The position numbers and the translations under genes were made by a program. Under the pieces are notes generated by a model. That model saw only the letters and a program-made list of their open reading frames with translations. It was not told the origin of the DNA and ran no database searches. Below are positions 19,118 through 27,513 of a DNA stretch of 27,513 nt, piece by piece (the stretch's first letter is position 1; each line of letters starts with the position of its first letter). The stretch comes from Escherichia coli (lineage in GTDB: Bacteria > Pseudomonadota > Gammaproteobacteria > Enterobacterales > Enterobacteriaceae): assembly GCF_003334385.1 (NCBI RefSeq), contig NZ_QOWN01000057.1; one strand, given 5' to 3'.

Positions 19118-19204
19118 TGGTGCGAGGGGGGGGACTTGAACCCCCACGTCCGTAAGGACACTAACACCTGAAGCTAGCGCGTCTACCAATTCCGCCACCT
19201 TCGC
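19118..19204 (-). tRNA. tRNA-Leu (anticodon CAG), 87 nt including CCA
   Basis: The reverse complement reads GCGAAGGTGGCGGAATTGGTAGACGCGCTAGCTTCAGGTGTTAGTGTCCTTACGGACGTGGGGGTTCAAGTCCCCCCCCTCGCACCA: class II tRNA with a long variable arm and a CAG anticodon. Only one copy is present. Confidence 0.95.
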
Positions 19205-19339: not shown

Positions 19340-19495
<156 letters not shown>

Positions 19496-22544: not shown

Positions 22545-23756
22545 ATGGCGCTGTCTGATGCGTGGTTGCGTTCAGTCGTTGGAAAGGAACGTGATAAGGT
22601 TTTGGTAAAATCCGATCGTGATGGTCTGTCTGTCAGAGTATCACCGAAAGGTCGCGTAGTGTTCCAATACCGTTATCAATGGGCAGGGAAAGGTGAGCGT
22701 CTTGATATCGGAACTTACCCGGCAACTGGATTAAAAGAGGCCAGAGAAGAAGTTATCCGTCTCCGTGGTGAACTCGAGTCAAACCGTAATCCACGATTGG
22801 TCAAGCAGGCTGAAAAACGAAAAGCTACTGAAGCCATGACGGTAGAGTCTGTGATCCGTGCCTGGTATGAAGCATATTGTGTAAAAAATAAAAAGGGTTC
22901 TGAACAGATACTCCGCTCGTTTGAGCTGCACCTGTTCTCTAAAATCGGGAATATCCCTCACGATGCAGCTACATTGCATGATTGGTTAGAAGTCCTGGAG
23001 CCTCTTAGCACTAAGACTCCAGCAATAGCAGACCGATTGCTAATTAACGCAAAGCAGGCCCATGTCTGGGCGTATAAGAGAAAGCTTATTGAAACTCGCC
23101 CGCTGTCGGACATCACGGGTAAAGATATGGATATCCGTAAAGGTCAGAAGAAACGGTTTCTGACACACGATGAAATTAAAATTCTTTATGCTGCGATCGA
23201 TGGTTCTCGAATGGTTCCCAAATACCGGGCCTTCATTAAACTATTGCTGCATTTCGGCTGTCGTAGTTCAGAGCTGATTACTGCCAGGGTGGACGATTTT
23301 GATTTCATTAATAAGGTATGGACTGTACCACCAGAACGACATAAGACAGGGGACATAACAGGCGAACCGCTAAAGCGGCCCATTATTGAACCTGTTGAAG
23401 AGCTTATAAAATATGTTATCTCTATGAACAACGGTTCCGATATGCTTTTTACTAAGGAAGGAAGCAGGGAGCCGGTTGGTCGGACATCATTGCAGTCGCT
23501 GCCTTACAATTTAATGCAGTACGCATGGCGGCGTTTAGGATATCAATTCCCTCATTGGTCTCTTCATGACTTGAGACGTACAGCTCGAACAAATTTTTCT
23601 GATCTTACTGCGCCTCATATCGCAGAAATTATGCTTGGTCATAAGCTGCCAGGGGTATGGCAAGTTTATGATAAGAGCGATTATCTAGAAGAACAGCGTA
23701 AAGCCTACCAGACATGGTGGGAGAGAGTTGAATCGATAGTTACTTGTACTAGCTAA
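22545..23756 (+). CDS. Tyrosine site-specific integrase (P4-like; N-terminal DUF4102-type arm-binding domain plus catalytic domain)
   Basis: 403 aa. N-terminus MALSDAWLRSVVGKERDKVLVKSDRDGLSVRVSPKGRVVFQYRY is typical of the P4-integrase family. The C-terminus carries catalytic-box residues HDLRRTARTN (H-x-x-R), LGHK and the nucleophile Tyr in VYDKSDY. Confidence 0.9.
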   Translation: MALSDAWLRSVVGKERDKVLVKSDRDGLSVRVSPKGRVVFQYRYQWAGKGERLDIGTYPATGLKEAREEVIRLRGELESNRNPRLVKQAEKRKATEAMTVESVIRAWYEAYCVKNKKGSEQILRSFELHLFSKIGNIPHDAATLHDWLEVLEPLSTKTPAIADRLLINAKQAHVWAYKRKLIETRPLSDITGKDMDIRKGQKKRFLTHDEIKILYAAIDGSRMVPKYRAFIKLLLHFGCRSSELITARVDDFDFINKVWTVPPERHKTGDITGEPLKRPIIEPVEELIKYVISMNNGSDMLFTKEGSREPVGRTSLQSLPYNLMQYAWRRLGYQFPHWSLHDLRRTARTNFSDLTAPHIAEIMLGHKLPGVWQVYDKSDYLEEQRKAYQTWWERVESIVTCTS

Positions 23757-24052
23757 GATTCCCGTTGACAGTTTGCGTAGCCAGAGCGCAATCAAATCTG
23801 ACGGTCTGCTTTGAGCTGAAGAGCGGATCTTATGTTCTTTTCACTGTTTCCTCAAAAGCATCTATTACTCACTTCGTTGCTCTTTGTGTCGTTTTGAAGA
23901 AAATGCCACTTAACAAAGAATTGGATTAACTAACTTTTTTAAAGGATGTACTTGCAACTTCAATCACAGAAAAAATTTCCAGTTACCCTAAAATGGTCAG
24001 CTTAAATCATTTTCAAAAAATTATTCAAATGTGTAGGGGAAGTGGGATTTTT

Positions 24053-25840
24053 ATGAGACTTGAAAAACTAATTTTAAAGAATTTTCGTGGCTATCACGGT
24101 GAACATAGTATTGACATTAATTCACTAACTGCAATCGTTGGACGTAATGATGTTGGAAAAACAACTATCCTAGATGCGCTTGGAGTGTTTTTTGACCATA
24201 AATTATGTAAATATGATGCTGCCGATAAATGTGTTGATAGTTTAGATAATGATGACGTAGCAATTGGGTGTGTTTTTTCAGGGGTTGAAATACCTATTGT
24301 CTTAGATGCTTCATCTATAACTAATCTTGAAAAAGAATACTTATTAAATAATGATAAAAAGTTAGAGATATATAAGGTTTTTACTAAAGGTAAGGGAAAT
24401 GGTAGCATTCAAGCGAAATGTATGGCTCCATCAGTAAAAAGTGCAAAGTCTTTACTCGCTAAAAAAAATGAGGAGCTTAAAAGAATTGCTGAATCTATTG
24501 GTGTGGATGATGCAGACAAAAGAAGTAATGTTAGTTTAAGGCAAGAGATTTACAAGAAAATTGGAGATTTGAAACTTCATGAAAGCTTTGTTAAATTAAA
24601 TGCTGAGGAGGGTAAAGTAATTTGTGATAAAATATACGATAAACTCCCTCATTTTGCACTGTTTCGCGCAGATAGACCTAGCACTGATGAAGAATCAGAA
24701 GTACAAGACCCTATGAAGTCAGCTGTACAAACAGCATTGCAAAAAATTGATGTTCAACTTGAGTCCATTAAAGATAATGTAAAAAAACACGCAATTTCCG
24801 TAGCGAATAACACAATTAATCATTTGCATGATATATCTCCTAATCTTGCATCTGGATTAGTTCCAAAGTTTAAGGTGGAACCTAAGTGGGAAAATATTTT
24901 TAAACTGACACTAGAAGATGATAGAGGTATCGCTATAAATAAACGTGGCAGTGGCGTTAGACGTCTTGTCCTGATTAGCTTTTTTAAAGCAGAAGCAGAA
25001 AGATTGCAAAGTGAATTCCCAGATAAAGGTGTTATCTATGCTATCGAAGAACCTGAAACATCTCAACACCCCTCTAATCAGAGACTCCTTATTGAGGCTT
25101 TTCAAGAGTTAGCAAGTTCAGATAAATGCCAAGTATTAATCACCACTCACGTACCAGCACTCGTAGAAAAGATACCGACTGAGTCTTTACGCCATATAAC
25201 CAGAACTCTTGACAATGGTTTAGAAGTAAAAAATGGTGATGATGATGTTCTTAAGAATATAGCAAATGATCTAGGTGTATACCCCGACAGTAGGGCATCT
25301 GTTCTTGTGTGCGTTGAAGGTCCTAATGATATAAACTTTTTAAAAAATATCGGTAAGGTTTATCTTGATTATGGTGTTAAAAATGTTCCAGACATGATGA
25401 ATGATCCGCGTATAGTTTTTATTCCAATGGGGGGGCATACTCTCAAAGATTGGGTTAATAACAATTATTTGAAAGTTCTAAATAAACCAGAGGTTCATAT
25501 TTATGACAGAGATGTTGCAGTTCCTCCCCAGTATGAAAATGAATGTAATTCAGTAAATGCAAGGAAGGATGGCTCTATAGCATTTATGACCCAAAAAAGA
25601 GAAATGGAGAATTATTTACACCCTGATGCCATTCAGGCTGTTTTCGGTATTACTCTAACCATAGACGATATGACAGATGTTCCTTCCGTTGTATCTAAAT
25701 TAACAGCATTCAATGAAAGCAAAGCGAAGAAGAAACTTAATAAGTTCGCTACAGGTAAAATGAGCTATCAAATGCTCACTGCAAGCGATACAGAAAGAGA
25801 GACGTTATCATGGTTTAATGCTATATATGACAGATTATAA
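24053..25840 (+). CDS. OLD-family ATP-dependent endonuclease-like protein (N-terminal ABC/AAA ATPase plus C-terminal Toprim); candidate single-gene anti-phage / abortive-infection factor
   Basis: Walker A VGRNDVGKTT near the N-terminus; Walker B / D-loop VIYAIEEPETSQHPS; H-loop LITTHVP; C-terminal Toprim-like motifs VLVCVEGPND (conserved Glu) and VHIYDRD (DxD). Start placed at MRLEKLILKNFRGY, with GGGGAAG about 10 nt upstream, rather than the track start 23993. About 595 aa, close to the size I recall for P2 Old. The gene is markedly AT-rich. No UvrD-like helicase partner is adjacent. Confidence 0.8.
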   Translation: MRLEKLILKNFRGYHGEHSIDINSLTAIVGRNDVGKTTILDALGVFFDHKLCKYDAADKCVDSLDNDDVAIGCVFSGVEIPIVLDASSITNLEKEYLLNNDKKLEIYKVFTKGKGNGSIQAKCMAPSVKSAKSLLAKKNEELKRIAESIGVDDADKRSNVSLRQEIYKKIGDLKLHESFVKLNAEEGKVICDKIYDKLPHFALFRADRPSTDEESEVQDPMKSAVQTALQKIDVQLESIKDNVKKHAISVANNTINHLHDISPNLASGLVPKFKVEPKWENIFKLTLEDDRGIAINKRGSGVRRLVLISFFKAEAERLQSEFPDKGVIYAIEEPETSQHPSNQRLLIEAFQELASSDKCQVLITTHVPALVEKIPTESLRHITRTLDNGLEVKNGDDDVLKNIANDLGVYPDSRASVLVCVEGPNDINFLKNIGKVYLDYGVKNVPDMMNDPRIVFIPMGGHTLKDWVNNNYLKVLNKPEVHIYDRDVAVPPQYENECNSVNARKDGSIAFMTQKREMENYLHPDAIQAVFGITLTIDDMTDVPSVVSKLTAFNESKAKKKLNKFATGKMSYQMLTASDTERETLSWFNAIYDRL

Positions 25841-25980: not shown

Positions 25981-26057
25981 GGCACAGAGCGGATTTCAGA
26001 TTAGGTGTGACTCTGTGCCATAGATGGGTATTAGCTCACATTTGATCTAATACCCAT
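25981..26057. terminator. Two stem-loops in the convergent intergenic region between the OLD-like gene and the alpA-like gene
   Basis: ggcacagag-N21-ctctgtgcc (25981-26019) and atgggtattag-N12-ctaatacccat (26024-26057); the second abuts the stop codon of the alpA-like gene. Confidence 0.35.
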
Positions 26058-26251
26058 TACTCAATAACTCCCGCAAACCTGTATATCTTGCGCGATGCCC
26101 ATTTATTTGGGCAGGATTTTATATCAGGATTTGGAAAGTCAGGCCTGTATTTCTGGCCTGTTTTCCTGTTTACGCTGTTCCAGCGAAGAACAGTCGATAC
26201 TGAAACGCCACAGAAGTCGGCGACTTGTTTAGTTGTCATTAAGTTGTTCAT
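26057..26251 (-). CDS. Small HTH DNA-binding protein, AlpA/excisionase-like
   Basis: 64 aa; TTKQVADFCGVSVSTVLRW resembles the AlpA/Xis-type helix-turn-helix. Its start overlaps the stop of the upstream DUF551 gene (TAATG). Confidence 0.55.
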   Translation of the reverse strand: MNNLMTTKQVADFCGVSVSTVLRWNSVNRKTGQKYRPDFPNPDIKSCPNKWASRKIYRFAGVIE

Positions 26252-26898
26252 TACTTCACCTCCTGCGGCGGCTCTGGTAGCGGTATCCAGTGGGTTACTT
26301 TCGATGCCGGTTCTTCTCCATCGTCAGTAACTGCCCACCATTTGTTTCTCGAACAATCGTAATACCCTTCGAAGGTATCGCACTCAGTCCAGCCGTAAGA
26401 CTTACCCCAACACCAAACATACTGTTTATCGTTCGGCATTCGCTCACTACAGCTTATCCAACCATCCGGAGTTACCGGAGAGTTGCCATCCAGCGCGTTC
26501 AACTTGTAAGCCTGGCTTACAGGTTCGGCACTATGAAGTATGGCTGCGCGGCAGGCGTTCCAGCCTGTAGCGTATGCAGCCGCTTTGCTGCTGTCTTCAA
26601 CTGGCGCATCCTGCCAATACATTTCTTCCGGCACTATCGGCGCTGGAGGGGCGGCAAATAGATATCCGCCAAAGTCAGGAAGCTCTCCAATGGCCTGTAC
26701 GAACTTTTGTTTGCCTACGTCAACTCCTAATGGGTAATGAGCTATAATCTTTGCCACCGGCTCTGCTTCCAGCGATACCAGTGCAATTCGTGCCAGTTCT
26801 TCCGCTTCTTCTGCTGGCAGTACAACGTTGCTACCCGGTCCGTATGTTTCGCGCCACTGCTTGATTGTCAGCAGTCGCCCTTTGGTAATAGTGATCAT
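26251..26898 (-). CDS. DUF551 domain protein (phage-associated)
   Basis: 215 aa; the C-terminal region WISCSERMPNDKQYVWCWG...WWAVTDDGEEPASKVTHWIPLPEPP matches the DUF551 signature (...VTHWMPLPEPP) as I recall it. Start overlaps the stop of the upstream gene (ATGA). Confidence 0.65.
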   Translation of the reverse strand: MITITKGRLLTIKQWRETYGPGSNVVLPAEEAEELARIALVSLEAEPVAKIIAHYPLGVDVGKQKFVQAIGELPDFGGYLFAAPPAPIVPEEMYWQDAPVEDSSKAAAYATGWNACRAAILHSAEPVSQAYKLNALDGNSPVTPDGWISCSERMPNDKQYVWCWGKSYGWTECDTFEGYYDCSRNKWWAVTDDGEEPASKVTHWIPLPEPPQEVK

Positions 26899-27410
26899 GC
26901 CGCGTATCCTTCTTTCTTATTAACAATCACACCGTCATATATTTCATTAAGGTGCCCTCTCAACTCCATGCGCCTTAATGCAGATAACATGTAATCGCAT
27001 TCAACCTGCTTATTCCCAGTAAATGGCTTATCGTCAGGATTACCCCAACAGCAATTACCCCTGGGCCATCCATGTACTTTCCGTACTCTTCCGTTAACAA
27101 CGTGAAGTAATCCCCAGCCGGGAGGTAAATCCTCAACTGAAATAATTTCCGGCTCACTAATAAAGAATCGCCAGTCGCCCATGCCAAGTGAGGGATTTTT
27201 ACGGAAACGCTTTTTTCTATCTGCCAACAAGTCAGCACGAGAACACTTCGCCTCTATCAGGCATGATGCTGAATTTCTGAATCCCATAGCATCTGGCTGT
27301 TCTCCGGTACTGGTTACAGCAACAAAGCGGTCATGAAAGCAAACCTTGAACCCGTTGCGCTTAAGGAACTTGTACGCAATCTGACAGAGTTCGTGGTGTG
27401 TTAACGCCAT
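26895..27410 (-). CDS. PD-(D/E)xK-type nuclease, MmcB-like
   Basis: Start set at MALTHHELCQIAYKFLKRNGF... with AAGGAG 7 nt upstream (the track ORF starts 11 codons earlier at 27443). Contains a PD...EAK arrangement (EQPDAMGF...CLIEAKCSRAD) consistent with a PD-(D/E)xK active site. Confidence 0.55.
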   Translation of the reverse strand: MALTHHELCQIAYKFLKRNGFKVCFHDRFVAVTSTGEQPDAMGFRNSASCLIEAKCSRADLLADRKKRFRKNPSLGMGDWRFFISEPEIISVEDLPPGWGLLHVVNGRVRKVHGWPRGNCCWGNPDDKPFTGNKQVECDYMLSALRRMELRGHLNEIYDGVIVNKKEGYAA

Positions 27411-27411
27411 A

Positions 27412-27513
27412 TCACTCTCCTTTGATGCGAATGCCTGTTGCAATGCTGTTTATGATGCTGTCAGTGCATGGGGTAGAAAGCTGGGCATCTCCAGCAATTT
27501 TCATGACCTCAAC
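27412..27513 (-). CDS. 3' end of an upstream ORF (partial, continues beyond the window), product unknown
   Basis: On the minus strand the frame ...VEVMKIAGDAQLSTPCTDSIINSIATGIRIKGE-stop is open from the window edge; its TGA lies 1 nt before the ATG of the MmcB-like gene, and the MmcB RBS sits within its last codons. Confidence 0.3.
   Translation of the reverse strand, partial: VEVMKIAGDAQLSTPCTDSIINSIATGIRIKGE

Follow-up and report, generated by a model that had tools for sequence, protein, structure and literature searches.

Our study identified the reading frame left open at one end of this stretch of Escherichia coli DNA as, very probably, the C-terminal tail of an ead/Ea22-like gene (Pfam PF13935) that lies in a lambdoid prophage, within its early-left operon, and is cut by the end of the contig. 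The stretch analysed, called the window here, is the entire 27,513-bp contig QOWN01000057.1 of the E. coli draft assembly GCA_003334385.1, and the window edge is therefore the contig end. The gene family found at this edge is already known, and in that respect the finding is real but ordinary. The frame ends in a short stop/start joint that also closes unrelated reading frames in other phage loci.

The reading frame at the contig end

The edge of the window contains the following features:

27412..27513, minus strand: 3' end of the putative ea22-like gene (33 codons and TGA), equivalent to residues 150-182 of the 182-aa full-length form and cut by the contig end
27417..27422, minus strand: perfect Shine-Dalgarno sequence AAGGAG of the downstream gene, 6 nt before its ATG and within the AAA GGA GAG (Lys-Gly-Glu) codons
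27408..27435, minus strand: conserved 28-nt module joint, GGCATTCGCATCAAAGGAGAGTGA-T-ATG, which encodes ...GIRIKGE with its stop and then the start of the next gene

Read on the minus strand, the end of the window is GTT GAG GTC ATG AAA ... ATT CGC ATC AAA GGA GAG TGA T ATG. An earlier note, made from these letters, had described a minus-strand frame open from the window end, a TGA one nucleotide before the ATG of a nuclease gene, and a ribosome-binding site within the last codons, and our analysis confirms what it observed: positions 27513..27415 have no stop through 33 sense codons up to the edge and translate as VEVMKIAGDAQLSTPCTDSIINSIATGIRIKGE followed by the stop; the TGA (27414..27412) and the ATG of the next gene (27410..27408) are separated by a single spacer T (27411), giving TGA-T-ATG; and AAGGAG (27422..27417) lies inside the Lys-Gly-Glu codons. 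The interpretation placed on these observations is partly supported, as the genomic context described below indicates. The same note had called the frame unannotated, which is not strictly true, as a public gene-call set has a partial gene of 33 residues there (L003 1..102).

A frame of 33 codons is open by chance about 1 time in 5 (3 stops per 64 codons), so that its openness alone is weak evidence and the case for the edge frame rests on homology. The frequency of open frames among random 33-codon stretches is also what favours reading this one as a non-coding chance frame in the 5' leader of the downstream 171-aa gene, a possibility that we regard as close to negligible given that the fragment matches a phage protein family profile and has exactly the sequence of the 3' end of a gene that Pfam recognises and hundreds of genomes carry. 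The profile in question is phrog_11761, whose C-terminal end (positions 79-109 of 110) is matched by the 33-aa fragment with an E of 1.7e-6. Many complete E. coli genomes match the final 414 nt of the window with 100% identity, and in them the 102 nt of the frame lie under the annotation 'ead/Ea22-like family protein'. This 102-nt segment is present in 391 of 5426 complete E. coli genomes, mostly annotated as ead/Ea22-like, both on chromosomes and on plasmids of ~86-110 kb, and it is also 100% identical in phages.

The protein WP_000065512.1 of E. coli O104:H4 strain 2011C-3493 has 182 aa and ends in exactly the 33 residues of the window; its start is a GTG located 447 nt upstream of the position equivalent to the window edge. 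The Pfam Ead_Ea22 domain (PF13935) covers its residues 2-151 (E 5.6e-36), and the protein also matches several PHROGs of unknown function. It is important to note that the Pfam comparison was made on this full-length relative, which is 100% identical over the 102 nt, that the domain itself lies beyond the contig end, and that the 33-residue tail falls outside it, the family membership of the fragment resting on identity to full-length relatives. In phage PhiR5_1, a 97.8% identical gene carries the name Ea22. In NCBIfam, neither the 33-aa fragment nor the full-length Ea22-like protein has a match, and the full-length protein has none in PADLOC.

An independent small ORF of 30 codons starting from the ATG at 27504, which the ORF listing gives as a 30-aa ATG ORF (27412..27504), has very little probability: the frame stays open 5' of this ATG up to the contig end, the methionine at 27504 is the internal residue 153 of the 182-aa protein in identical relatives, and the ATG is preceded by only GAGG, two bases upstream, too close for a ribosome-binding site.

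Two further properties agree with the assignment of the edge frame to the Ea22 family. First, the C-terminal ending: a basic-Gly-Glu (+GE) terminus has been reported for all Ea22 proteins (PMC7093339), and the window ORF ends in ...IRIKGE. Second, the location: the frame lies in an early-left region, with an excisionase-like gene and an integrase downstream in the window, and with a repressor/cro switch and early genes upstream in relatives. The same tail is borne by two N-terminal variants among related loci. Across these loci, codon changes within the 102 nt amount to 6 variants, some of them caused by indels, with 3 synonymous and 7 non-synonymous changes, too few to inform. The AF2 model of the full-length relative shows one long helix at residues 78-158, with pLDDT 84-91 over residues ~80-130; the model is poor overall (mean pLDDT 62), and residues 150-182, those seen in the window, are poorly modelled (pLDDT below 50-60). 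The full gene would probably encode ~182 aa, with a helix at the N-terminus, a small domain that varies, the long conserved helix also present in lambda Ea22, a short C-terminal variant and the terminal ...GIRIKGE.

The contig end and the assembly break

The whole region was found in none of the 5,426 complete E. coli genomes searched, the best of them being JNEC-KY204, which diverges at the joint. This genome has the closest complete prophage at the same site, 99.4-99.6% identical downstream; its match to the window starts at 27433, where the joint has its upstream edge, and further upstream the genome carries another ea22 C-terminus, ...EHALRVADIRIKGE. A contig of a second draft assembly (L004) starts at window position 27435, where the joint begins. 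Of the 5426 complete E. coli genomes, 1136 contain the exact 31-nt joint, as many as five times in one genome, and short-read assemblies break at such repeats. Most likely, the contig ends inside the ea22-like gene because ea22 segments and the 3' joint are repeated among E. coli prophages.

A different cause for the contig end would be that only a 3' remnant is left, the 5' part of the ea22-like gene having been lost by deletion or broken up, for instance by an IS element, with the contig ending at the disruption. IS copies often coincide with contig ends, the closest complete genome has a disrupted copy of the neighbouring DUF551 gene, and some Ea22-like genes are labelled 'incomplete' by PGAP. 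We consider such a remnant unlikely. The ORF under the PGAP 'incomplete' label in JNEC-KY204 reads through intact (L001:5423-6022), and in all 22 IMG/VR loci with the C-terminal type of the window the ORF is intact and has 182-185 aa. Intact ea22 genes match the contig through to its final base, without foreign sequence, although this is a weak argument against an IS insertion; and the repeated joint together with the repeated central block is a simpler cause of the assembly break.

Prophage context and the early-left operon

The chromosomal part of the window carries rsmC-holD-rimI-yjjG, after which the prophage genes begin:

22545..23756, plus strand: tyrosine integrase of the prophage, adjoining yjjG
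23993..25840, plus strand: AriA/OLD/GajA-like ATPase of 615 aa, between the integrase and the excisionase-like gene (PADLOC AriA, E 8.2e-57; Pfam AAA_15 and AAA_21)
26057..26251, minus strand: excisionase-like protein of 64 aa, the last minus-strand operon gene in the window (phrog_1553 excisionase, E 1.9e-35; weak Xis and HTH NCBIfam matches)
26251..26898, minus strand: DUF551 protein of 215 aa (PF04448), whose ATG and the stop of the preceding gene overlap as ATGA
26895..27410, minus strand: PD-(D/E)XK, MmcB-like-fold protein of 171 aa, the downstream partner of the joint

The minus-strand genes, in the order ea22' (the truncated ea22-like gene), 171-aa gene, DUF551 gene and excisionase-like gene, converge on the integrase and the ATPase. 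Between ea22' and the gene that follows it, the minus strand showed no site resembling a promoter or a terminator. In the JNEC-KY204 prophage, the region upstream of the ea22-like gene holds a Cro/CI switch, a LexA-family repressor, yfdP/Q/R-type genes and small ORFs, and the O104:H4 prophage has the same gene order. What the earlier note had called an island is a lambdoid prophage beside yjjG, and the operon is its early-left operon, equivalent to the exo-xis region of lambda. The gene that precedes the 171-aa gene in this operon is a familiar prophage gene and not hidden cargo of an island.

Other elements of the contig can be described separately. In the 615-aa ABC-type ATPase (23993..25840, plus strand), the match to AriA, of the PARIS system, spans residues 21-391, and the G+C content is low (0.31-0.39); this is probably a prophage-borne anti-phage defence gene. 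The chromosomal part contains a tRNA-Leu(CAG) gene (19118..19204, minus strand) and an Rfam naRNA4 match, REP-derived (19345..19427, plus strand), both unrelated to the finding; the Rfam scan of the window gave no match near the edge frame.

The downstream 171-residue protein

The ATG at 27410 is supported as the start of the downstream gene by the residues H5, C9 and L16, which are invariant in 39 homologs of 59-96% identity, and by the sequence upstream of it, which varies between contexts. Residues D40, E53 and K55 are also invariant in the 39 homologs. The AF2 model built from these homologs is good (pLDDT 84, pTM 0.78) and has a PD-(D/E)XK fold with the conserved D...E-x-K, its nearest neighbour being the solved structure of the MmcB-like family (3dnx), whose aligned fragment is itself recognised as MmcB-like by Pfam (E 5.4e-10). 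For the 171-aa protein, Pfam gave no match even at E <= 10, the MmcB-like profile PF06319 included, and neither did NCBIfam or PADLOC; a search of the 39-homolog profile against PDB sequences gave 3dnx at an E of only 0.48. The label 'MmcB-like nuclease' used in the earlier note is thus fair for the fold, whereas membership of the family is not borne out. Compared with the MmcB-like DNA repair family (PF06319, 3dnx), the protein forms its own prophage-borne family, with many homologs in Enterobacterales, all of them annotated as 'hypothetical'.

Annotation of the mosaic region

Several gene models in this region differ from the reading frames present. In complete genomes, RefSeq/PGAP gives the 171-aa gene (L002:4104-4619; L001:6024-6539) as a short 'frameshifted hypothetical protein' of 179 nt, and another gene caller gives only 95 aa, while the 171-codon ORF is intact and conserved across Enterobacterales. 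The JNEC-KY204 Ea22-like gene (L001:5423-6022) is labelled by PGAP as 'incomplete; missing C-terminus', and its ORF reads intact to ...IRIKGE and the stop. For the mosaic Ea22-like gene at L086:2551-3102, the annotation table, which is the sole source for this case, carries a PGAP incomplete label or leaves the 3' part unannotated. The PGAP 'incomplete' labels are probably artefacts, produced when mosaic genes are aligned to a reference that has another C-terminal module. In phage 933W (L087:3950-4104, minus strand), the reference annotation leaves a gap between the ea22-like gene and p08; the gap holds a 50-codon ORF whose start overlaps the ea22 stop (TAATG) and whose end overlaps a further ORF (ATGA); this further ORF begins upstream of the annotated start of p08.

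The 28-nt stop/start joint

The last 24 nt of the window ORF are GGCATTCGCATCAAAGGAGAGTGA, and the joint has the general form GGCATTCGCATCAAAGGAGAGTGA(T/G)ATG. We surveyed it in 80 IMG/VR loci encoding relatives of the full-length Ea22-like protein, in which 76 Ea22-like ORFs could be read to their stop. The ending ...KGE, encoded by cgcatcaaaggagagTGA and followed by (T/G)ATG, was found in 59 of the 76, in proteins with lengths from 182 to 380 aa. The variants of the joint, AAAGGAGGTGAGTAATG (ending GGE) and AAAAGAGGTGAGTAATG of 933W (ending RGE), retain a purine run similar to a Shine-Dalgarno sequence and an adjacent start. When the occurrences of AAAGGAGAGTGA were anchored, the 49 unique contexts showed a conservation of 0.8-1.0 from -21 to +6 and of ~0.4-0.5 on both flanks.

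The joint AAAGGAGAGTGA(T/G)ATG connects 15 upstream C-terminal types with 18 downstream genes in 37 combinations, the commonest of which is that of the window. For 20 of the 83 occurrences, the preceding ORF was flagged as lacking the Ea22 central motif; in ~14 of them this ORF is clearly unrelated, for example Zn-finger-like (...CGFCKKPSAAQNLWKNHLRTKGE before the stop) or DUF551-like (...NACRAAMLHGKGE before the stop), and the remainder are contig-end fragments or Ea22-type C-termini.

The last three ea22 codons thus also supply the ribosome-binding site for the gene that follows. The geometry of the gene pair, TGA-T-ATG with AAGGAG 6 nt upstream of the start, is that of translational coupling and is kept in the 49 unique contexts. 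We infer from this geometry, itself directly visible, that the ea22-like and 171-aa genes are co-transcribed and probably translationally linked. The mRNA fold around the joint and start showed no structure beyond that of shuffled sequences (z 0.03), and nothing argues for an obligatory coupling. The reuse of the joint between many unrelated genes points to a second role: the 28 nt would therefore probably also be a short homology patch for the swapping of modules by recombination, to judge from the combinations seen.

Comparison with other phages

Ea22, a tetrameric coiled-coil protein transcribed early from pL, favours lysogeny and has C-terminal domains that vary by phage (PMC7093339, PMC10834534). 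By analogy, the product of the window gene would be an early protein tilting the phage towards lysogeny; it is important to consider that the pro-lysogenic effect comes from deletion studies in lambda and Stx phages only, whose C-terminal domains differ from the type found in the window (PMC7093339, PMC10834534).

The Ea22 protein of lambda (NP_040612.1, 182 aa) shares its last 24 nt with the window ORF, and, when aligned with the full-length relative, has in common with it the helix at the N-terminus, the block LLDERERNQQYIKRRDQENEDIALTVGKLRVELE at the centre and GIRIKGE at the end. In lambda, ea22 likewise belongs to the early-left region, upstream of xis and int, and 933W has the same layout. 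There are three differences. The 25 residues that precede the joint in the window (VEVMKIAGDAQLSTPCTDSIINSIA) are unrelated to the structured mixed alpha-beta C-terminal domain of lambda Ea22, the window-type segment being short and predicted, at low confidence, to be helical; most relatives have an extra small domain at the N-terminus, which lambda Ea22 lacks; and the joint in lambda is no longer followed by an ATG.

The Ea22 proteins of the Stx phages 933W, Phi24B and P27 (Dydecka et al. 2020, PMC7093339) belong to the same family, with the same mosaic pattern and the +GE ending. Unlike the window type, they have other C-terminal domains and lengths of 257-315 aa. In phage P27 the joint of ea22 is identical (the same 24 nt), and the GenBank record KU238067 annotates AAGGAGA, within the last ea22 codons, as the ribosome_binding_site of the next gene. 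Phage 933W combines its variant joint and RGE ending with an overlapping TAATG.

The theory of modular evolution in phages reportedly goes back to Botstein in 1980, and short conserved boundary sequences between lambdoid modules are said to have been described on phage HK620 by Clark et al. in 2001. Like those boundary sequences, the joint of the window is a short conserved patch flanked by interchangeable unrelated sequences; unlike them, it is also a translation signal, made of a Shine-Dalgarno sequence, a stop and a start, and recombination at this site is deduced from the combinations. Among the papers covered, our literature search for boundary or linker sequences in lambdoid phages returned nothing relevant.

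Significance of the joint

The ea22 tail and the joint were also present on 111-156 E. coli plasmid records of phage-plasmid size (~86-110 kb), and the module therefore passes between prophages in the chromosome and phage-plasmids outside it. The shared joint probably also accounts for the recurrent assembly breaks and for the RefSeq 'incomplete' and 'frameshifted' labels on intact ORFs in the mosaic region.

The +GE motif of Ea22 proteins has been published as a feature of unknown significance (PMC7093339), and the Shine-Dalgarno sequence embedded in the stop/start joint probably explains it. We consider it rather probable that this motif is the translated shadow of a reusable 28-nt joint, formed by a Shine-Dalgarno sequence, a stop, one base and an ATG, which ends many unrelated early-left genes, drives the translation of the next gene and serves the exchange of cassettes among E. 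coli prophages and phage-plasmids. If the +GE ending is indeed imposed by the joint, changing the last codons of ea22 would alter the expression of the next gene, which matters for the design of Ea22 truncations and tags.
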